A program made the translations under genes and the position numbers. The notes under the pieces were generated by a model, which saw only the letters and a program-made list of their open reading frames with translations, searched no databases and was not told where the DNA came from. Shown piece after piece: positions 806-40,391 of a DNA stretch of 40,391 nucleotides. Position 1 is the first letter of the stretch. Each line of letters begins with the position of its first letter. The DNA comes from an uncultured Mycoplasmatota bacterium (GTDB lineage Bacteria > Bacillota_I > Bacilli_A > RF39 > UBA660), in the NCBI GenBank assembly GCA_900551925.1, contig URXR01000002.1, forward strand, positions 1 through 40,391, in the 5' to 3' direction.

Positions 806-882
806 GCCTCAATAGCTCAGTTGGTTAGAGCACTTGACTGTTAATCAAGGGGTCCTAGGTTCGAGTCCTAGTTGGGGCGCCA
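806..882 (+). tRNA. tRNA-Asn (anticodon GUU), CCA encoded
   Basis: Acceptor GCCTCAA/TTGGGGC, anticodon stem CTTGA/TCAAG with loop CTGTTAA, T arm CTAGG-TTCGAGT-CCTAG, 3' GCCA. Confidence 0.9.
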
Positions 883-890
883 TTTTTAAT

Positions 891-967
891 GGCCTGTTGG
901 TGAAGCGGTTGAACACACTGCCCTTTCACGGCAGCATTCACGGGTTCAAATCCCGTACAGGTCACCA
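891..967 (+). tRNA. tRNA-Glu (anticodon UUC), CCA encoded
   Basis: Acceptor GGCCTGT/ACAGGTC, anticodon stem CTGCC/GGCAG with loop CTTTCAC, T arm ACGGG-TTCAAAT-CCCGT. It closely resembles Bacillus tRNA-Glu. Confidence 0.9.
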
Positions 968-978
968 TTTTTGTTTAT

Positions 979-1006
979 AAAACCCTAAATTAGGGTTTTT
1001 TCTTTT
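979..1006 (+). terminator. intrinsic terminator of the tRNA cluster
   Basis: AAAACCCTAA / TTAGGGTTTT hairpin followed by a T-run. Confidence 0.7.
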
Positions 1007-1089
1007 GTAAAAATGATTATTTATAGGATAAACAAAAACTCTCAATATAATTGATAGAATAAAATAAAAATAGGAAAGGAAGTGAAAAA

Positions 1090-1848
1090 ATGAGTAAAAT
1101 ATACTTTAAATATCCTACTGCATTTGTTGGAATAACCACTAAATTCTCTAAAGATCATCCCGGTATAGATTTAGGCTGGAATAATAGTTATGGAGGACAA
1201 AATGCTCCAATCTATTCTGCCAGTGCTGGATATGTTTATGAAATAACAACTGCTGGAACTGCAGGTAATGCTGTAACTATAAGAAGAAACGATAAAACAA
1301 ATAATTGTACCTGGTATTTTAAATATAAACATCTGTCAAAAATAAATGTCAAAGAAGGTCAAAATGTTAATATATATACTAAAATTGGTAATATGGGAAA
1401 CACTGGAGGAGATTATGCTAGCCATCTCCACTTTGATGTTGTAAAATGTCCATATGGTTATGATTATACTCAAACAGAATCAACAAGAGCTAAATACTCT
1501 GTAGATCCTACTAAATATGTATATTTATATCCCGATCAATTTGTAGGAGAAAGTAAAAAACTAGTAAAAACTTATTCCGCATTAGGAGCTTATAAGACTA
1601 CTAGAAGTATGAATATACGATCAGGAGCCGGAACAAACTATAGAATTAAAAAAGTAAGTGAGCTTACTAAAGATGGCAAAAAGAAAGCTACCCTTCAAAA
1701 TCCTAATGCCTATGCAGCACTAAAAAAAGGAGCAACTTTTACAGCCAAAAAAATCTATAAAAATGCCGATGGCTCTATTTGGGCTAAAATACCATCTGGA
1801 TATATTTGTTTACAAGAAGGCTATACTTTTTACTGTAAAAAATTGTAA
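1090..1848 (+). CDS. M23 (LytM-type) metallopeptidase with C-terminal bacterial SH3 domain; no signal peptide visible
   Basis: HPGIDLG (HxxxD) and SHLHFDV (HxH) M23 zinc motifs. The C-terminal YKTTRSMNIRSGAGTNYRIKK...SIWAKIPSGYICL is SH3b-like. RBS AGGAAAGGAAG lies upstream of the ATG. Confidence 0.8.
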   Translation: MSKIYFKYPTAFVGITTKFSKDHPGIDLGWNNSYGGQNAPIYSASAGYVYEITTAGTAGNAVTIRRNDKTNNCTWYFKYKHLSKINVKEGQNVNIYTKIGNMGNTGGDYASHLHFDVVKCPYGYDYTQTESTRAKYSVDPTKYVYLYPDQFVGESKKLVKTYSALGAYKTTRSMNIRSGAGTNYRIKKVSELTKDGKKKATLQNPNAYAALKKGATFTAKKIYKNADGSIWAKIPSGYICLQEGYTFYCKKL

Positions 1849-12404: not shown

Positions 12405-13544
12405 TTGGAAAGTTTAAATAAAAAAGACGTAATAACTATGAAATTACTTCATTATTTTATAACCGAAGAAAATTATAGTCCTGTTGTTTTACACGGAGCC
12501 AAAAATGAAATATGGCTTGAAAATATGGATAATGATTATAAAATAGTTAGAATTGTCTCAAATTATATTCATAATAATGAACAATTAGATTTTGATATCT
12601 TTAAAACAAAAAAAATAGTAAAAAGTATTAAGAAAAAAACTTTAAACGTTAATATGCCAGTTCTAAGTATCTTTATTGATCTTGGTGATAATGTAGAGCT
12701 ACGTGAAGAAAAAGATATGGATCTAGTTTACCTAGAAAATGAAAAAGATATTAAAAAATATGATTTTCTTTACAAACACTTTCCTGATTTAGATAAAAAA
12801 TTGACTTTTAAAGAAAAGGGGATGAATTTATTTTTGAAAATAACCGAAGATATAAATAAAAAAAATGTCGAAGAAGCTAGAAGAGTAGAAGAAATTTTTA
12901 AACCTAAATTTCCAATTGTAACTTATGTTCTAATAGGAATAAATGTTGCTATATTCTTAATAGGTATGTTATTTGGACTTAATAATGTCTTTATTAATCT
13001 ATTTGCTAACTATGGACCATATGTAGTAGATGGAGAGTATTATAGACTTTTAACTGCAACCTTTATTCATGCCAATATTTTTCATATTGCTTTTAATATG
13101 TATGCTTTATATTTATTAGGAAGTCAAGCGGAAAGTTTTTTTGGCAAATGGAAGTTTTTAATAATTTATTTATTAAGTGCTATTTCAGGTAGTTTACTAT
13201 CAATCCTTTTAAATCAAGGAGCAGTATCAGTAGGAGCCAGTGGGGCAGTATTTGGAATTATGGGAGCTTTATTATACTTTGGTTATAATTATAGAGTTTA
13301 TCTAGGTAATACCCTAGTAAAAGCAATAATACCAGTCATACTAATTAACTTCGCCTTTGGTTTTATATTAACTGGAGTAGATAACTATGCTCATATCGGA
13401 GGATTAGTCGGAGGTATAACAACTGCTATGGCAGTAGGACTAACTACTAGATCAGGAAAAACAGATAAATTAAATGGTATTATTATTACAATTCTATTAT
13501 TTGCATTCTTAATATTCATGAACTTTTTCTATCAAAACATATAA
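12405..13544 (+). CDS. rhomboid family intramembrane serine protease with ~170-aa N-terminal cytoplasmic extension
   Basis: FIHANIFHIAFNMYALY, GASGAVFGIMGA (catalytic Ser) and AHIGGLVGG (catalytic His) within a 6-7 TM core. The TTG start is preceded by GTAGGTGG. Confidence 0.85.
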   Translation: MESLNKKDVITMKLLHYFITEENYSPVVLHGAKNEIWLENMDNDYKIVRIVSNYIHNNEQLDFDIFKTKKIVKSIKKKTLNVNMPVLSIFIDLGDNVELREEKDMDLVYLENEKDIKKYDFLYKHFPDLDKKLTFKEKGMNLFLKITEDINKKNVEEARRVEEIFKPKFPIVTYVLIGINVAIFLIGMLFGLNNVFINLFANYGPYVVDGEYYRLLTATFIHANIFHIAFNMYALYLLGSQAESFFGKWKFLIIYLLSAISGSLLSILLNQGAVSVGASGAVFGIMGALLYFGYNYRVYLGNTLVKAIIPVILINFAFGFILTGVDNYAHIGGLVGGITTAMAVGLTTRSGKTDKLNGIIITILLFAFLIFMNFFYQNI

Positions 13545-13549
13545 AAATT

Positions 13550-13579
13550 ACAAGTATCAGAAATGGTACTTGTTTTTTT
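13550..13579 (+). terminator. intrinsic terminator of the rhomboid gene
   Basis: ACAAGTA / TACTTGT stem followed by T7. Confidence 0.75.
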
Positions 13580-13598
13580 ATCTAATAAATTATATAAT
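13570..13598 (+). promoter_or_regulatory. sigma-A-like promoter (TTGTTT-17 nt-TATAAT) driving the orphaned 12-codon leader
   Basis: Consensus -10 at 13593-13598. A paralogous arrangement (TTGCAA-17-TATAAT) precedes the second leader at 40241-40269. Confidence 0.55.
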
Positions 13599-13633
13599 TA
13601 ATACATAATAAGACTAAGAAAGTAGTGAGAAAT

Positions 13634-13671
13634 ATGAAAAAACAAAAAGAACAAACTACAAAGGGGAGTTA
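13634..13671 (+). pseudogene. 5' fragment (ATG + 12 codons, MKKQKEQTTKGS) of the glycine-rich protein gene, cut off by the IS
   Basis: The reading frame runs into the IS terminal repeat and stops inside it. It joins in frame to 15081 onward if 13672..15080 is removed. Confidence 0.6.
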
Positions 13672-13707
13672 TGTCAATATTTGGTACAACATTTTGAGGG
13701 GGTTTTA
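13672..13707. repeat. IS terminal inverted repeat (orfB-proximal end)
   Basis: TGTCAATATTTGGTACAACATTTTGAGGGGGTTTTA pairs with the reverse complement of 15041-15080. Confidence 0.7.
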
Positions 13708-14573
13708 GAAGAAATTTGAGATTTTTCAAACTCAATTGGAGACATTCCCCCAATAGAAGAATGAATTCTCTTAGGGTTATAAAACCCCTCAATATAATCA
13801 AAAATAGTTTTGTAAGCATCTTCATAGTGATATAAAGTAGTATTATATATACATTCTTTTTTTAAAGTAGCATGGAAAGATTCTTGAGCAGCATTTTGAT
13901 CGCATGAATGATTAAGTTCTGTATAACTATAAAGACAATGATGATTACTTAAAAGCTTTCTATAAGATTTAGATCTAAATTGAGCACCTTTATCAGAATG
14001 AATGATTAAACCTGGTAAAGGTTTTCTTTTTTTAAAAGCAATGTTAAAAGCAATCTCGATGTTAACAGTTTTTTGATTTCTAGATAAAAACCAACCAACA
14101 ACTTTTTTACTAAAATAATCAATAAAAGAGATTAAATATAAAGTACCATCATAAACAGTCTTAATATAAGTAATGTCAGTAGTCCAAACTTGATTTATAT
14201 GCCATATATTTAAATTGATAATTAAGTTTTTAATTAAGGCTTTTTCTTCTAAAGTCATAGGAGATTTTCTATGTGGGAAGTTTTTAGTGTGGATACTTTT
14301 AATACCAAGGAATTTCATTTCATTAGCAATTTTCTTTTGAGAGAAAGAAAAGCCTTGATTTTTAAGTTCAATAGTGATTCTAGGGGCACCATATATACCA
14401 TTAGAATTCCAATAAATATCAAGAATTTTAATTAATAATTTAGCTCTTTTTTCTAGATTAATATGATAAAAATGTTTCCAGTTGTAGAAAGAATTTCTAG
14501 AAATGCCTAGGACTTTACATTGAGCAGCGATAGAATGAAATTTAGAGTTTTGTAAAATAGCAAGATAAATCAT
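13674..14573 (-). CDS. IS3-family transposase OrfB (DDE/RNase H-like integrase core), probably made as an OrfAB fusion by -1 frameshifting
   Basis: WTTDITYI (D), IHSDKGAQFRS (D) and NAAQESFHATLKKE (E), followed by YNPKRIHSSIGGMSP. The stop codon lies inside the terminal repeat. Confidence 0.9.
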   Translation of the reverse strand: MIYLAILQNSKFHSIAAQCKVLGISRNSFYNWKHFYHINLEKRAKLLIKILDIYWNSNGIYGAPRITIELKNQGFSFSQKKIANEMKFLGIKSIHTKNFPHRKSPMTLEEKALIKNLIINLNIWHINQVWTTDITYIKTVYDGTLYLISFIDYFSKKVVGWFLSRNQKTVNIEIAFNIAFKKRKPLPGLIIHSDKGAQFRSKSYRKLLSNHHCLYSYTELNHSCDQNAAQESFHATLKKECIYNTTLYHYEDAYKTIFDYIEGFYNPKRIHSSIGGMSPIEFEKSQISSKTPSKCCTKY

Positions 14574-14851
14574 TTTCCGTTTTTGATGTAAAATCCTAAA
14601 GTTTTTTTTAAAATATCATTGGTGTTCTCGAGTTCAGCAATTCTCTTTTTAAGCTTTTGAATGTGTTGTTCTGGAGAGATGTAGTCAGAGTCAAAAACTT
14701 TATTATTTTTATTATAAGCAGTAATCCACTTTTCAAGAGTTTTTAAAGGGACATGTAAATCATTAGCAGTTTTCAAAGTAGAATGTTTAGAAATAATAAC
14801 AAGTTCAGCAGCCATTTTTTTGAATTCATTGCTATAATAACTATTAGCCAA
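14570..14851 (-). CDS. IS3-family transposase OrfA (helix-turn-helix)
   Basis: 93 aa with TTG start 7 nt after GGAGGTGA. MAAELVIISKHSTLKTANDLHVPLKTLEKWI HTH and a leucine-zipper-like C-terminus. Confidence 0.85.
   Translation of the reverse strand: MANSYYSNEFKKMAAELVIISKHSTLKTANDLHVPLKTLEKWITAYNKNNKVFDSDYISPEQHIQKLKKRIAELENTNDILKKTLGFYIKNGK
14602..14609 (-). promoter_or_regulatory. programmed -1 ribosomal frameshift site (A-AAA-AAA within an A8 run)
   Basis: In the orfA frame the sequence reads TTA AAA AAA ACT. A -1 slip continues as NFRILHQKRKMIYLAIL, which is the orfB frame. This is the canonical IS3-family arrangement. Confidence 0.75.
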
Positions 14852-14914
14852 AAAATCACCTCCTTTAAAATAAAGATAAAGATAAAAAAGAATAAAATCA
14901 AGGAAAAAGGTATT

Positions 14915-14936
14915 TTACTTTCTTTAAAGAAAGTAA
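14915..14936. repeat. perfect 22-nt palindrome in the IS leader (TTACTTTCTTT|AAAGAAAGTAA)
   Basis: Read directly from the sequence. It lies between the terminal repeat and the orfA start. Confidence 0.9.
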
Positions 14937-15040
14937 AGGAAATTATAGACATGAAGATGTAGAAATGGTATTATAGATATATAGAAAAGTAGAAGAAAGG
15001 AAGACAGTTGTATGAAGAGAAATAAAGAAAAAGTAACTAA

Positions 15041-15080
15041 TGAAACCCCCTCTGAAAACTGTCCCAAAAATATACTAACA
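15041..15080. repeat. IS terminal inverted repeat (orfA-proximal end)
   Basis: The reverse complement is TGTTAGTATATTTTTGGGACAGTTTTCAGAGGGGGTTTCA. It shares TGT.A.TAT.TT..GG.ACA..TTTT..GAGGGGGTTT with the other end. Confidence 0.7.
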
Positions 15081-15096
15081 TCCAAGAAAAATAGAC

Positions 15097-17283
15097 TTGG
15101 GGGGGGGGTACTTTTACAAACAATTAAATAAAGATGTAAAAGAAATAAACAAAGTATTTCTATCTTTATTTAGCATGGGAATAATACTTGTTGCCATATA
15201 TGTAGGAGTGAGCATAACAAATAATTCATATGCTTTATTTACAGATACCCTAAAGGGAGAAAAAACTATCGAAGTAACAGTTCATAATGAATGGAATTTT
15301 GGATTTACTGGTGATGAACAAACTTTTATTGTACCCAAAAACGGCTATTATTATATAGAACTCGGAGGGGCTCAAGGAGGTTCCAACTATAGTGAAATTG
15401 AGTATGGAGGAAAAGGAACTATAACAAGTGGTTATATTTATCTTAATAAAGGAGAAACTTTGTACATTTATGTTGGAGAAAAAGGGAAACACGGTAGTAA
15501 TGTAGATCCCGCTTATAATGGTGGAGGCGGCCAAGGTGATGGGGTACTTTCCACTAATTTATATGCTACTGGAGGAGGAGCGACCGATATAAGGCTAACT
15601 AATGGAGATTGGGATGACATCTCCTCACTCATATCCAGAATAATGGTCGCTGGAGCTGGAAGTGGCTCATATGGTTTTTATACAAAAGGTGTTCCTGGAG
15701 GAGCATTATATGGTAATAATGGGTTAAGAACTTTAACGACTTATGAGACTTATGGGCACGGAGCAACTCAAACCAGTGGAGGTTCCAAAGGAGAAGTTAT
15801 TAATGCTGGATTGGATTGGTATGGTTCCACTGATGGAGGTTTTGGCTATGGAGGTGAAGGGCCTCTTAAATACGGAGGAGGAGGTGGCGGAGGCTACTAC
15901 GGTGGCGGAGGAGCCGGAGTTTCCTCAGCCAATGGTTCAAGTGGTGGCAGTGGTTCCTCATATATCTCAGGCTATGCCGGAGTAAATAGTGTTGAAGAAA
16001 ATACGACAATAACTCATACCAACCAAACTCTTCATTATAGTGGTAAATACTTTATCGGAGGAAAAATGCTTGAAGGACAAAATGAAGGCCATGGTTATGC
16101 TAAAATAGGATTTATAGGAGAAAAACCAGAAAAGAAAACTACTAAATTAAACAATGTCAGATATATAAAAAATTGTATAAGCCATAATAGTGTATATGAT
16201 TATAATAACTGGCTAGAAATAGAAGCCATAAAAGATGGAATAAATATAGCCAAAGGAAAGACAGTAACAGGAACAACTTCAGAACACACTTCATATCCTT
16301 ACTCTAGAATAACAGATGGTGATATAGATTATGAAAATTTTGCATCACCTTCAAGCTCTGCCTTAAATCAGTGTGTCACAGTAGACCTAGAACAAGAATA
16401 CAATTTAGATGAAATAGCAGTATGGAATTTTTTCGGTGATCAAAGAACTTATTATAACAATACTACCTCAGTATCAAGTGATAATCAAAACTTTACTGAA
16501 ATAATAACCGGAAATGCTATGCTAGAAACTAGCAATGGTCATAGAATAAATGCTTATACAGATACTTATAATGGTTACGTTTCAGATAATTTACTATTGT
16601 GGTACGATGGTTATGCTAACACAGGAACAAAAAAAGATTATACTATAGCAACTTGGAAAGATTTAAGTGATAATGATAATGATGGAACTTTAACCGAAGG
16701 AACTTGGGAATATGATAGCTTATTATTGGACGGAGATAACAATACAGTAGAAACTAATCTTGATGCTAAAACAACTTTGCCAACCGATGAAGATAGAACT
16801 CTAGAAATAACTTTCAAAATAAATAGTGTTCCGTATGATGAAAACACAAATGGCTATACCGGAGTTTTCTTTGGAGCAATTAATTATGGAGGAATGGGAA
16901 TAACTTGGATAAGAAATGTTTCCGCTAATTCTTATTCTATTAATGGTGTTACTAGAGCTAATGAAATAAGACAAGTAAAAATATTACACCAGACTTATCC
17001 CACTAAAATTATAACTTTAACCTATGTAAATAACCCCTCAAACAATAAAATACTATTTTATTTAAACGGAGAAAAAATAGGAGAAGATTTAAGCACAACA
17101 GGAAGTTATCCTAATGAAATAGGAAATATTGGTATAAATAAAGCTCAAGTACCTGGAGGAATAGAAAGTGGTAATTATGCTAACATTAATGTTTATAGTG
17201 CTAGAATCTATAATAAAGCTCTAACAGAAACAGAAATAAAAAATAACTTCTCATATGATAAAGAAAAATTTTATTTCAACTAA
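15097..17283 (+). CDS. membrane-anchored glycine-rich-domain (ALK/LTK GRD-like) protein with discoidin (F5/8 type C)-like and LamG/ConA-like C-terminal domains; native 5' end displaced by the IS
   Basis: TM helix VFLSLFSMGIILVAIYVGV. GRD motifs FGFTGDEQTFIVPKNGYYYIELGGAQGG, GGGATDIRLTNGDW...SRIMVAGAGSG, GGGGGGGYYGGGGAG, GGSGSSYISGYAG, GHGYAKIGFIG. ITDGD...QCVTVDLEQEYNLDEIAVWNF is discoidin-like. LLLWYDGY...ARIYNKALTETEIKNNF is LamG-like. The frame is closed 7 codons upstream and there is no SD before TTG 15097. Confidence 0.75.
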   Translation: MGGGYFYKQLNKDVKEINKVFLSLFSMGIILVAIYVGVSITNNSYALFTDTLKGEKTIEVTVHNEWNFGFTGDEQTFIVPKNGYYYIELGGAQGGSNYSEIEYGGKGTITSGYIYLNKGETLYIYVGEKGKHGSNVDPAYNGGGGQGDGVLSTNLYATGGGATDIRLTNGDWDDISSLISRIMVAGAGSGSYGFYTKGVPGGALYGNNGLRTLTTYETYGHGATQTSGGSKGEVINAGLDWYGSTDGGFGYGGEGPLKYGGGGGGGYYGGGGAGVSSANGSSGGSGSSYISGYAGVNSVEENTTITHTNQTLHYSGKYFIGGKMLEGQNEGHGYAKIGFIGEKPEKKTTKLNNVRYIKNCISHNSVYDYNNWLEIEAIKDGINIAKGKTVTGTTSEHTSYPYSRITDGDIDYENFASPSSSALNQCVTVDLEQEYNLDEIAVWNFFGDQRTYYNNTTSVSSDNQNFTEIITGNAMLETSNGHRINAYTDTYNGYVSDNLLLWYDGYANTGTKKDYTIATWKDLSDNDNDGTLTEGTWEYDSLLLDGDNNTVETNLDAKTTLPTDEDRTLEITFKINSVPYDENTNGYTGVFFGAINYGGMGITWIRNVSANSYSINGVTRANEIRQVKILHQTYPTKIITLTYVNNPSNNKILFYLNGEKIGEDLSTTGSYPNEIGNIGINKAQVPGGIESGNYANINVYSARIYNKALTETEIKNNFSYDKEKFYFN
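15099..15108 (+). repeat. G10 homopolymer within codons 1-4 of the remaining ORF (TTG GGG GGG GGG)
   Basis: Counted directly: two G at 15099-15100 plus eight at 15101-15108. Surrounding DNA is very AT-rich. Confidence 0.95.
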
Positions 17284-37238: not shown

Positions 37239-39149
37239 ATGTTTGTAAAAAAAAATAATGAGAGAATTAAATTAGTTTTTATAATAGCAATATTATTATT
37301 TTTAATTATCTTTTTTAAAATAGTTTATGTTCAAACTGTCTCCTATGATAAACTTAGTACTTTATCAGATGATTTATGGAGTAGAGAGCTTCCAATAAGT
37401 GCTTCTCGTGGTAAAATTCTAGATAGAAATGGAGTAGTTTTGGCAGATAATATCACTATTACTAGTCTTGTCATTATTCCCAATCAAGTTAAAGAACCAG
37501 AAAAAGTAGCTAAAGTATTAAGTAATATTTTAAATACTGACTATGATGATATGTATGCTCATGTTACTAAAAATACTTCTATTGAAAGAGTTCATCCCGA
37601 AGGAAGAAATCTATCCTATGAAATAGCAGATGAAATAAACAGTTATAAATTTGATGGAGTATATGTAGTAAAAGAAGCCAAAAGATATTATCCAAATGGC
37701 AATATGCTATCTCATGTTTTAGGTTATACGGGTATAGACAATCAAGGACTTTCCGGAATAGAGCTTTTATATGATGATTATCTAACTGGAGAAGATGGTG
37801 CTATTAAGTACTATAGTGATGCGAAAGGCAACAAATTAGATATGGCTGAAGTTTATACTGAACCTGAAGCTGGACTAGATGTTATGCTTACTATTGATTA
37901 TGATATTCAAGTCTCTATCGAAAGAGAATTAGATAATATTGTTTCCAGTTTTTCTCCAGACCATGCTCTAGCAGTAGCAATGAACCCTAATACTGGCGAA
38001 ATACTAGCTATGAGTTCTAGACCAAATTTTGATCCCAACAATTATCAAAAATATGATGAAGAGACTCTAAATAGAAATCTTCCCATTTGGATGACCTACG
38101 AACCTGGTAGTACTTTTAAAATAATTACTACTGCTGCTGCAGTAGAAGAAGGAGTTGTAAATTTAGAAAAAGATGAATTCTATGATAGTGGCAGTGTCAC
38201 TGTAAGTGGTGTTAAGCTTAGATGTTGGAAAGCTGGAGGTCACGGTCATCAAACAATGCTCCAAGTTTTTGAAAATTCTTGTAACCCAGGTTTTGTCAAA
38301 ATGGGATTTTCTCTAGGCAAAGAAAAACTCTTTGATTACATAAATTTATTTGGCTTTGGAGAAAAAACAGGTATAGATTTAAATGGAGAAGGCGAAGGAA
38401 TTATTTTTGATGTAGAAGATGTTAAAGACCTAGAACTTGCAACGACTGCCTTTGGTCAAGGAGTAAGTGTAACTCCAATCCAACAAGTAACAGCAGTATC
38501 CTCAATAGTTAATGGCGGTTATTTATATAAACCCTATATCATGAAGAGCATTTTAGATAGTGAAACCAATAATGTCTTTACTAGTGGCGAAAAAGAACTA
38601 GTTAGAAAAACAATTAGTAAAAATACTTCAAATATATTAAAAATGGCCCTTGAAAGTGTTGTAGCAAATGGTGGAGGAAAAGTAACATATATCGATGGTT
38701 ACCGAGTTGGAGGAAAAACTGGAACAGCTCAAAAAGTAGAAAATGGTAGGTACTTAGAAAATAACTATATAATGAGTTTTATGGCAGTTCTCCCTAGTAA
38801 TGATCCAGAAATAGTTTTATATCTAGCCATCGATAATCCTAAAAAGACAGCGCTTTTATCAAGTTATACTACAACTCCTTTTGTTAGAAAAATTCTTCTT
38901 GATATTATTAACATCATGGATATCAAAAAGCAAGATAATCAAAAAGAAAAAGATTATGAATGGATGGATAAAAAATATTATGAAGTCCCAAATGTTATTG
39001 GTATGACTAAAGAAGAAGCTAAAAAATATTTAACAGGTTTTGAAATAGAATTTGTTGGAGATGGCGACATAGTAGTAGAACAAACCCCTGAGGCTAACAC
39101 TAGATATTATGAAACTGGTACTATCAAACTTCTTATGGGTAATAAATAA
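37239..39149 (+). CDS. class B penicillin-binding protein (PBP2B/SpoVD-type transpeptidase) with one C-terminal PASTA domain
   Basis: N-terminal TM helix, dimerisation domain, and GSTFK (SxxK), SCN (SxN) and KTGTA motifs. The C-terminal YEVPNVIGMTKEEAKKYL...IVVEQTP is PASTA. It lies upstream of mraY. Confidence 0.9.
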   Translation: MFVKKNNERIKLVFIIAILLFLIIFFKIVYVQTVSYDKLSTLSDDLWSRELPISASRGKILDRNGVVLADNITITSLVIIPNQVKEPEKVAKVLSNILNTDYDDMYAHVTKNTSIERVHPEGRNLSYEIADEINSYKFDGVYVVKEAKRYYPNGNMLSHVLGYTGIDNQGLSGIELLYDDYLTGEDGAIKYYSDAKGNKLDMAEVYTEPEAGLDVMLTIDYDIQVSIERELDNIVSSFSPDHALAVAMNPNTGEILAMSSRPNFDPNNYQKYDEETLNRNLPIWMTYEPGSTFKIITTAAAVEEGVVNLEKDEFYDSGSVTVSGVKLRCWKAGGHGHQTMLQVFENSCNPGFVKMGFSLGKEKLFDYINLFGFGEKTGIDLNGEGEGIIFDVEDVKDLELATTAFGQGVSVTPIQQVTAVSSIVNGGYLYKPYIMKSILDSETNNVFTSGEKELVRKTISKNTSNILKMALESVVANGGGKVTYIDGYRVGGKTGTAQKVENGRYLENNYIMSFMAVLPSNDPEIVLYLAIDNPKKTALLSSYTTTPFVRKILLDIINIMDIKKQDNQKEKDYEWMDKKYYEVPNVIGMTKEEAKKYLTGFEIEFVGDGDIVVEQTPEANTRYYETGTIKLLMGNK

Positions 39150-40240: not shown

Positions 40241-40269
40241 TTGCAATAAATATAAAATTTTTGTATAAT
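40241..40269 (+). promoter_or_regulatory. sigma-A-like promoter (TTGCAA-17 nt-TATAAT) of the second orphaned leader
   Basis: Its position relative to the leader ATG is about the same as the promoter at 13570-13598 (about 35-37 nt from the -10 to the ATG). Confidence 0.55.
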
Positions 40270-40306
40270 TAAAATGTATAAAAACTAAAGAAAGTAGTGA
40301 GAAAAT

Positions 40307-40344
40307 ATGAAAGAAAATAAAAAGCAAACTACCAAGGGGAGTTA
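40307..40344 (+). pseudogene. second 12-codon leader fragment (MKENKKQTTKGS), paralogous to 13634..13671 and again cut by the IS
   Basis: The upstream AGAAAGTAGTGAGAAA element, length and terminal AAGGGGAGTTA are the same as in the first leader. There are 6 nt differences, in 4 of the 12 codons. Confidence 0.6.
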
Positions 40345-40391
40345 TGTCAATATTTGGTACAACATTTTGAGGGGGTTTTAGAAGAAATTTG
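40345..40391 (-). mobile_element. first 47 bp (orfB-proximal end) of a second copy of the same IS3-family element, truncated by the window edge
   Basis: 47/47 identical to 13672..13718 (TGTCAATATTTGGTACAACATTTTGAGGGGGTTTTAGAAGAAATTTG). Confidence 0.85.

Follow-up and report, generated by a model that had tools for sequence, protein, structure and literature searches.

Target-specific insertion sequences (ISs) are known, for the most part with extragenic repeats or other mobile elements as targets. Within the IS3 family, target specificity has been described for IS1397, ISKpn1 and ISPsy8, and for IS1397 and ISKpn1 it has been attributed to the transposase (PMC1525189). Here we analyze an IS3-family element in a 40,391-nucleotide stretch of DNA from an uncultured Mycoplasmatota bacterium (contig URXR01000002.1, positions 1 to 40,391), which we refer to as the window and which is AT-rich (27.8% GC), originates from the human gut and carries spore genes. 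The element inserts almost only in the short 5' coding leader of one large paralogous gene family, the members of which are predicted to encode secreted glycine-rich ALK_LTK_GRD proteins. A recently active IS3 element with targeted insertion in the leaders of this family is, as the main explanation overall, what we consider probable. We regard the targeting pattern as solid and infer the mechanism of recognition and the consequences for gene expression.

The behaviour of the element is closest to that of target-specific IS3 members of the IS1397 type, combined with repeat-targeted insertion of the IS911 type. As in the case of IS1397, ISKpn1 and ISPsy8, which target repetitive extragenic palindromic (REP) sequences, we are dealing with an IS3-family member of which nearly all copies reside in one short repeated target class (PMC1525189). 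However, elements of the IS1397 type target an extragenic palindrome, which is hit in its loop, whereas the target described here is a coding leader in which the insertion point is set by the distance to a poly-G tract, and the orientation relative to a gene is fixed. Given that a coding leader is targeted here rather than a palindrome, we do not place the element in the REP-targeting class. IS3 and IS30 members are known to insert beside inverted repeats (PMC4471558), and in IS911 it is the subterminal repeat, and not the outermost ~10 bp, that is protected by the N-terminal part of the transposase (PMC7780238). Our element may resemble IS911 and IS30 in inserting beside repeat-like DNA: its subterminal GAGGGGGT and the target TTG(G)n have a G-run in common, and a second IS inserts in its repeat beside a C5 run. 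It differs from them in that this likeness comprises the G-run only and that the spacing between insertion point and G-run is shorter.

For IS900 of Mycobacterium avium subsp. paratuberculosis, a member of the IS110 family, a targeting of translation initiation signals in one orientation has been reported, by which expression signals of IS and host become coupled (Doran 1997, cited in PMC8141618). IS900 differs from our element in its DEDD transposase and in generating no duplication, and it uses host signals for its own hed open reading frame (ORF), whereas the element in the window is predicted to donate signals to the host gene. An outward promoter at the IS end that drives the neighbouring gene, which is a prediction in our case, has been described for ISAba1: after insertion in adeS a truncated protein is expressed from Pout, and a change of the start codon from ATG to AAG lowered resistance (PMC3498117). 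In contrast to ISAba1, the insertions of which are sporadic and drug-selected, the element described here contains a promoter, a Shine-Dalgarno (SD) sequence, an ATG and an open leader, and has a dedicated target. Poly-G contingency genes are known in Campylobacter and Neisseria, and as in these genes a 5' tract of G9-G11 sets the reading frame, a likeness that describes the target genes and not the IS. We found no published account of an IS that is specialised on the leader in a gene family with poly-G phase variation.

Two paralogous leaders in the window are interrupted by the same IS

The window comprises a complete copy of the IS (copy A) in a family gene located after a rhomboid gene and the beginning of a further copy (copy B) in a paralogue located after mraY. 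The features at the two sites are as follows.

13570..13598, plus strand: promoter-like site of paralogue A, located after the rhomboid terminator at 13550-13573 (terminator hit)
13617..13663, plus strand: leader A, composed of the SD element (13617-13632) and 10 codons, MKKQKEQTTK, from ATG 13634 (translation)
13661..13663, no strand: AAG, left copy of the target duplication; AAG flanks both IS ends directly
13664..15083, minus strand: complete IS3-family IS, copy A, 1,420 bp, GGGAGTTATG...CTAACATCC, the constant part of 17 left and 11 right junctions
15084..15086, no strand: AAG, right copy of the target duplication, on the same basis as the left copy
40241..40269, plus strand: promoter-like site of paralogue B, TTGCAA-17-TATAAT, downstream of mraY, 10/12 in the consensus scan; it precedes an intact gene in L024/L029
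40289..40304, plus strand: SD-containing element AGAAAGTAGTGAGAAA of paralogue B, which also precedes most of the leaders occupied by the IS
40307..40336, plus strand: first 10 codons of paralogue B, MKENKKQTTK, interrupted by the IS (translation)
40334-40336: AAG, expected left duplication copy of B, by analogy with copy A
40337..40391, no strand: terminal 55 nt of IS copy B, orfB-distal end, 55/55 identical to 13664-13718; the window ends inside the element

A first-pass annotation of the window had noted that 40345-40391 equals 13672-13718. This identity is complete (47/47), and blastn extends it to 55 of 55 positions starting at 40337 and 13664, respectively. Indeed, a 31-nt probe derived from the IS end matches the window at the two junctions only and gave 0 matches in 100 shuffles. 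Also in agreement with the annotation, the DNA upstream is diverged, with 73% identity in an alignment of 97 columns that reaches from the -35 box to the junction. These ~97 nt comprise promoter, SD and the 10-codon leader at both sites, with a -10 box that is common to A and B. The shared upstream element that had been pointed out is the 16-mer AGAAAGTAGTGAGAAA, which occurs without mismatch only at 13617 and 40289 in the window, and the leaders are, as described, of equal length, start with ATG, translate as MKKQKEQTTKGS and MKENKKQTTKGS and differ by 6 nt. Both promoters had been rated as good; this applies to promoter B with its 10 consensus positions out of 12, whereas promoter A (TTGTTT-17-TATAAT), which was read from the sequence, has a weak -35 box and was not listed by the scan because TTGTTT matches only 3/6.

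In other respects the annotation had to be corrected. The step from diverged to identical sequence had been placed at a TG, but the last mismatch is located at 13660/40333 and identity starts at 13661/40334 (AAG GGGAGTTA TG), so that the identical run of A and B begins 11 nt before this TG. The view that the leader is target DNA and not part of the element holds true for the upstream leader, whereas 8 nt of the leader as then delimited belong to the IS. Similarly, an insertion at the same phosphodiester bond applies to copies A and B, both of which lie directly after ...ACTAC(A/C)AAG, while family-wide a few positions within ~9 nt are used.

The interrupted leader A forms an ORF of 24 codons, which starts at ATG 13634, runs into the IS and stops at 13706-13708. 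The junction of copy B was recovered from independent assemblies (L001/L025, L026, which corresponds to NCBI GCA_964319725.1, L033 and L034; L and P numbers denote collected sequences and proteins, respectively) and is therefore no artefact of a single assembly. All assemblies found for copy B break inside the IS, with L001/L025/L026 continuing from the junction into it, and the right flank of copy B, where the annotation expected a further glycine-rich paralogue, was not recovered from them. In the IS-free strains L024/L029, an intact family gene follows the same mraY promoter as in paralogue B. The region 40241-40391 represents a second, independent insertion, in the paralogue after mraY, the first being that in the paralogue after the rhomboid gene.

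Insertions cluster in a short zone in the leaders of one gene family

Further copies of the IS were gathered by exact look-up of OrfB and OrfA, by scanning metagenomes for a 25-nt IS end and by inspecting the neighbours of window genes in public assemblies, which resulted in 17 distinct left and 11 distinct right junctions from unrelated metagenome assemblies. Because contig chimeras are likely, with real IS recombination as the alternative, the left and right junction sets were used separately and the pairing was taken from copy A of the window.

Fifteen of the 17 distinct left flanks are recognisable promoter-SD-leader regions, which fall into two main types (MK.Q/NKEQTT... and MKK..K.IFA...). 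The L015 flank represents a third leader type, and its right flank translates as ..NKCSSGG, as in P0061. The L012/L014 flank has a 14-nt string in common with the L024 leader and is probably a remnant of a family leader. Hence, 16-17 of the 17 distinct left flanks are family leaders, and among the collected junctions no IS copies were found in gene bodies or unrelated DNA. This catalogue supports the proposal of the first-pass annotation that the 5' end of one gene family is targeted. The annotation had also suggested looking for unrelated flanks of other copies, and apart from the 15 obvious leaders only the third leader type and the probable remnant were encountered; the ~60 nt upstream, which it had considered as a possible part of the element, do not accompany the IS, since they belong to at least three diverged types and have no inverted copy at the other end.

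The orientation is identical in all copies, the transposase being antisense to the gene that is hit. The left flanks end after ACTA, ACTACA, ACTAC(A/C)AAG, ..AAGAAG, TTTTTGCT or GTT, and GCTAAG, and the right flanks begin correspondingly with CCAAG, ACAAAG, ACCAAG, GCTAAG, AAG and others. All of them align to one native sequence, ...ACTAC(A/C)AAGAAAAATAGACTT(G)n, with offsets that span ~9 nt. The start of the G-run lies at a distance of 16-19 nt from the IS tip in each of the 11 distinct right flanks, including those with different spacers before the G-run (AAAAATGAGAGAGTT in L013 and ACAAATAAATGTTCGTCC in L015). This pattern also holds for L023, which carries a diverged variant of the IS and in which a G6 run starts 20 nt from the tip, following the spacer CGCAAACAAACGTTTGCCA.

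Ends of the element and target duplication

Every left junction (17/17 distinct) reads N followed by GGGAGTTATGTCAAT, and every right junction (11/11 distinct) reads CTAACATCC followed by N, the outside bases being variable in both cases. An IS variant that is 84% identical also ends with ...CATCC. Family genes free of the IS contain neither GGGAGTTA nor TCC at the corresponding place, and the intact protein P0075 reads ...KKNRLGGG..., not ...GSYPRKIDLGGG as predicted by TG...CA borders. Since the constant junctions, the end of the variant, the IS-free genes and the intact proteins agree, we define the element as 13664-15083, with copy B starting at 40337. The TG...CA ends assumed in the first-pass annotation were thus not retained; the ends are GGGAG...CATCC, located 8 nt and 3 nt further out. 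With these borders, copy A is flanked by a 3-bp duplication, AAG, and native relatives carry a single AAG before AAAAAT. In L021, the IS is flanked by GCT on both sides, and related sites that are unoccupied or differently occupied contain AAG and GCT once.

The element encodes the following two proteins.

13674..14573, minus strand: orfB, DDE (rve) catalytic part of the transposase, 299 aa (PF00665/PF13333/PF13276)
14570..14851, minus strand: orfA, HTH_Tnp_1 (PF01527), 93 aa, matching positions 1-83 of the NF033516 model

The match to the NCBIfam model NF033516 (IS3 family transposase) reaches 236 bits compared to a cutoff of 160. The frame of orfB is -1 relative to that of orfA, and an A8 slippery run in the overlap (14602-14609) could serve as a -1 frameshift site into orfB. 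The terminal inverted repeats (13677-13705 and 15043-15071) are imperfect, i.e. 76% complementary, with an alignment that reaches the tips. Two overlapping frames, a length within ~1.2-1.55 kb with imperfect repeats and a duplication of 3-5 bp are therefore found as in the IS3 family, whereas the TG and CA are located 8 and 3 nt inside GGGAG...CATCC instead of at the termini. TG...CA ends are usual, not universal, in this family. Because all other tested features are present, the assignment to the IS3 family stands and the tips are regarded as an anomaly.

In blastn comparisons, 11 full copies were 98.7-99.9% identical over all 1,420 nt, and the 11 copies, which come from different samples, differ in 31 variable columns out of 1,423. 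The IS is recently active. An analysis of single-nucleotide polymorphism density along these copies did not locate constraint, the 31 differences in 1,423 being too few. Exact scans of 185,579 species-representative genomes with the IS end and with the target block GAAAAATAGACTTGGGGGGG returned no match, and a search for the IS in plasmids revealed only a distant IS3 match from Clostridium perfringens.

The target gene family carries a poly-G tract of variable length

The gene body downstream of copy A shows the following features.

15097..17283, plus strand: interrupted glycine-rich family gene body, 728 codons from an in-frame TTG (PF12810 ALK_LTK_GRD, 1.5e-38)
15099..15108, plus strand: poly-G tract (G10) within the 5' coding region, at this length out of frame with both ATGs; no other G run in the window reaches 8

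The product of 15097-17283 has 1,784 homologues at E<=1e-10. Among the homologues listed, the N-termini follow one plan, i.e. a short basic leader, GGG, Y(F/L)YKxLNKD, a hydrophobic stretch and SYALF(T/S)D, in which GGG corresponds to the G9-G11 run in the DNA. A SipW-type signal peptide represents a weak lead, with a sub-threshold match to the TapA N-terminus (E = 0.026, 14 bits compared to a cutoff of 80). A protein search with the reconstructed leader, which is a short N-terminal query, resulted in 1 match.

It is well established that homopolymeric tracts cause slipped-strand phase variation. In the native paralogues L043/L044 (~1490 in L043) and L045 (~1535) the tract is G9 and the leader ATG is in frame, whereas G10 or G11, which is found in the window and in most other copies, puts the leader ATG out of frame. 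Thus, the tract lies in the 5' coding region and differs among alleles in length and thereby in frame, a pattern which, by analogy with described contingency loci, is the signature of slipped-strand phase variation. G or C runs of at least 5 are rare in the window (8 in 40 kb), and 5 of these 8 are located in the IS or its target. Many family proteins in the databases are called from TTG ("MGGGY...") or from internal methionines because G10/G11 puts the leader ATG out of frame.

How the target might be recognised

The subterminal motif GAGGGGGT is present in all four repeats of both ISs, i.e. of the element described here and of a second IS3-family element found in the same 5' regions (see below), and the target reads TTG(G)9-11T. 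The transposase would choose the target, anchored on the G-run or on the junction of A-tract and G-tract, and the G-run would mimic the subterminal motif of the element's own inverted repeats. Such an anchoring on a repeat mimic is our preferred guess, which we put forward tentatively and with somewhat less than even confidence. The distance from insertion point to G-run is 16-19 nt, compared to 26-34 nt from IS tip to G5.

A palindromic target, GGGGA-GTTA-TCCCC, similar to that of IS1397, was also considered and dropped, as GGGAGTTA and TCC belong to the IS according to the junction catalogue. The target is not an extragenic palindrome; it is the coding leader ...ACTACAAAG^AAAAATAGACTT(G)n, and no inverted repeat was found around the target site.

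The gene-proximal IS end as a possible outward expression module

Between orfA and the gene-proximal tip, the IS contains 232 nt (14852-15083) with two features directed towards the family gene.

14946..14974, plus strand: outward promoter-like site in the IS, TAGACA-17-TATTAT with TG extension, the best consensus match in 13400-15300 (10/12)
14996..15083, plus strand: IS-borne SD AAAGGAAG (14996-15003), ATG at 15012 and 24 codons, MKRNKEKVTNETPSENCPKNILTS, open through the tip (translation)

The insertion would separate the native promoter, SD and ATG from the gene body, and the native promoter would then transcribe antisense into the transposase gene. The gene-proximal IS end would supply a replacement promoter, an SD and a 24-codon leader, with the tip being read in the native leader frame, so that the interrupted gene could still be expressed and still be switched by poly-G length. 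In 8 of the 11 right flanks the IS-borne frame continues into ...KKNRLGGG, which is the native leader frame. The L018 fusion stays in frame across the G-run, and the called ALK_LTK_GRD protein of 231 aa (809..1504) starts at the ATG of the IS; in L023, with the diverged IS variant, the fusion results in the 669-aa protein P0092, MKRNKEKINNETPFENCPQNILTS-RKQTF.... The two IS variants (84%) show only 8 differences in the 139 nt from the -35 box to the tip and are heavily diverged further inside, and this conserved block fits a selected module that may act outwards. Because this stretch has to accommodate the inverted repeat and the promoter of the transposase as well, we only infer an outward function.

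A protein search with the IS-borne leader fusion, again a short N-terminal query, gave 0 matches, which is uninformative because the known fusion P0092 was missed as well. We also considered that the SD and leader of the IS might be a captured native family leader, and rejected this as unsupported, given a local alignment score of 23 compared to 23.6 +/- 3.8 for shuffles.

Weighing of the explanations

Taken together, staggered junctions, matched duplications, an IS identity of ~99% compared to 73% in the flanks and the IS-free family gene that other strains have after mraY speak for insertions that were repeated, recent and targeted, and not for one inherited insertion. Several points weigh against this reading and its extensions. 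The termini GG...CC, with TG and CA 8 and 3 nt inside, are unusual and unexplained. Matching duplications were found in only 3 of 9 distinct full-length contigs, and the other 6 possibly require a chimeric short-read assembly across the 1.4-kb repeat or recombination between ISs. Every junction was taken from a metagenome contig with unknown strain structure, which makes the number of independent events uncertain, and both scans of species-representative genomes were empty. As to recognition, a local alignment of the IS end with the native 5' region was no better than shuffles, so that the likeness is limited to the G-run. As to expression, the block conserved at the IS end might just as well be needed for the promoter of the transposase itself, which lies on the opposite strand (overlapping TATAAT), the G10 tract of copy A in the window puts both ATGs out of frame, and IS-driven expression is a prediction from the sequence. 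Assembly chimeras are likely, since a repeat of 1.4 kb with 99% identity cannot be phased by assemblers that use short reads; identical left flanks are combined with different right flanks or gene bodies in L004 and L005 and in L008 and L017.

Selection could in principle generate the same picture without intrinsic targeting, if the IS inserted more or less at random and persisted only in one spot and orientation, where it would be harmless because it provides a new start, or advantageous because these surface proteins are silenced or rewired. The accumulation of the second, different IS in the same 5' regions, the hits of this IS and of an IS30-like element in the end of the first IS, the gene deletions at the mraY locus (L028/L030/L032), which suggest dispensable loci under diversifying pressure, and the location of 14 of 15 leader junctions on codon boundaries, as expected if the frame matters, all fit such a scenario. 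However, any insertion in these ~2-kb genes would silence them, and an in-frame insertion anywhere in the ~60-100 nt before the membrane segment would permit a fusion, whereas the 16-17 events all fall within ~9 nt at a fixed distance from the G-run, even with different spacers, and no copy was seen elsewhere in gene bodies or unrelated DNA. Because any hit silences and a wider zone would allow fusions, we consider it unlikely that selection alone has acted on random insertions.

It is very unlikely that the copies go back to one ancestral insertion, after which gene and IS were duplicated into the paralogues and the IS was homogenised by gene conversion. The common orientation and nearly common position of all copies would be explained in this way, as would the short right-flank block AAGAAAAATAGACTTG plus poly-G, which is better conserved than the surrounding gene, and paralogous 5' regions do exchange sequence (B-type leader at the rhomboid locus, L035). 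The junctions, however, differ by 2-9 nt and have their own 3-bp duplications, AAG and GCT, where the pairing is trustworthy, the contrast between IS and flanks sets in abruptly and, in every copy, at an identical nucleotide, the mraY locus of other strains is IS-free with an intact gene, and at least three unrelated leader types are occupied.

The targeting of contingency-type genes with poly-G tracts by an active IS, the copies of which are very similar, also brings to mind a reversible switch, in which insertion and precise excision would turn family members off and on, as for IS492 or IS256. No empty allele was found at the rhomboid locus, the contigs of which contain one of the two ISs or end at the repeated terminator/promoter, and neither the rhomboid nor the mraY contigs, most of which break at repeats, contain a clean empty-site allele of a leader that is occupied elsewhere. 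Moreover, copy-out/paste-in, by which the IS3 family transposes, leaves the donor copy in place (PMC2909936). A tip remnant in L022 could be the scar of an IS loss, but it is imprecise, and altogether we rate a switch of this kind as highly improbable. In L022 (618-680, P0075), an intact-looking family gene with the leader ATGATGAAACCAAAAGGAACATCC followed by ACCAAGAAAAATAGACTT forms a continuous ORF. Exactly at the place expected for an IS end it contains AACATCC, which equals the final 7 nt of the tip, together with the string ATGAAACC, which also occurs in the IS end. The arrangement resembles a scar left by the deletion of an earlier insertion, which may have restored the open frame.

Finally, canonical TG...CA ends (13672..15080), which would imply a fixed pre-existing 11-bp target, GGGAGTTA^TCC, and no duplication, agree with the normal ends of the IS3 family, with the good alignment of the repeats from TGT(C/T)A(A/G)TAT and with a leader ATG that would be in frame with the 728-codon ORF at G10, but are the least credible option, as no IS-free family gene contains GGGAGTTATCC or encodes ...GSYPRKIDLGGG, intact proteins with ...KKNRLGGG or similar (P0075) match the other frame, AAG..AAG and GCT..GCT would be coincidences and the DDE transposases of the IS3 family make duplications.

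Targeted insertion of a recently active IS3 element could be complemented by a further role, which we consider a rather improbable idea: the IS and its relative between -10 box and SD may be a working part of a surface-protein variation system, in which promoter and leader are replaced, the poly-G register is kept and the many ~99%-identical copies, with their uniform orientation at gene starts, act as portable homology, so that recombination re-assorts expression sites and gene bodies among loci. Hints for such cassette shuffling are the non-matching flanks in 6 of 9 full-length contigs, the different bodies in L004/L005 and L008/L017 and the non-orthologous leader in L035, all of which could be assembly chimeras. 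If true, this would constitute an IS-based layer on top of slipped-strand switching.

Other elements and rearrangements at the family loci

The second IS3-family element has the ends TGCATTGGTCAAG... and ...GTATAGCAG (also given as TGCATTGGTCAAGTTAAAGTAGACAATTTGAGGGGG... and ...GTATACTTTAAGTATAGCAG) and an rve ORF of 293 aa. It is located between the -10 box and the SD of family genes, e.g. in other strains at the mraY locus (L027, ~4981+90) and at the rhomboid locus (L039, ~1524+85), as well as in the left flanks of L013, L016 and L021 and in L043/L044 (L043 1264-1441). Its orientation is constant, with the transposase divergent from the family gene, and an outward TTGACT-18-TATACT lies just inside its gene-proximal end; the adjacent gene in L043 is in frame. 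The second IS is also found inside the right end of the first IS, next to the C5 run (L014, L020). In L019 (~1763), a copy of the first IS is truncated after ...CCCCCTCT and followed by an element with a 404-aa HTH_38 protein, which looks IS30-like. Because the second IS and the IS30-like element hit the IS end, the repeat of the first IS is itself a hot spot for other ISs. With two ISs in the same 5' regions, the 5' ends of the family are a shared habitat of a small IS clade.

The terminator hairpin ACAAGTATCAGAAATGGTACTTGT (13550-13573 in the window) and the promoter recur upstream of paralogues in L007, L018, L022 and L010 behind different upstream genes, from which we conclude that the repeated 5' unit of the family starts at the terminator. 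Short-read contigs often break at the repeated terminator/promoter (L036-L041), and the contig of P0002 begins with the poly-G tract. Another strain has a leader of B type (..GAGAAAATATGAAAGAAAATA), and not of A type, at its rhomboid locus (L035, 5140-5245), which suggests an exchange of 5' regions between paralogous loci. In L028 (2329-2550), L030 and L032, promoter and SD of the family are still present after mraY, but what comes next is unrelated sequence and a gene for a TPR protein; the family gene downstream of mraY is deleted in these strains, with a solo promoter left as a remnant.

Beside mraY, the gene for a PASTA-domain penicillin-binding protein (PBP; orthologue of 37239-39149) is represented in several strains by a 282-aa C-terminal part only (L024 1-3916, L028 3-1263, L031 2-2495), which is directly preceded by a large serine recombinase of 581 aa; in L024, a TraG/type IV secretion system coupling protein is also encoded ahead of the split gene. 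This suggests that an integrated mobile element splits the PBP gene in those strains, reminiscent of intervening elements in sporulation genes.

Implications

A classical DDE element of the IS3 family homes to a ~9-nt zone in the coding leader of a large phase-variable gene family of a human-gut Firmicute, and its gene-proximal end looks as if it were built to restart the gene that it interrupts. The target is small, is available in natural sequence variants and may be homopolymer-anchored. Since the IS copies break short-read assemblies exactly at the family genes, mis-annotation of the family is systematic. Should the outward module work, it would offer the IS a route to high copy number at little cost for the host, and surface-protein variation in the gut microbiota would be controlled at one further, new level.

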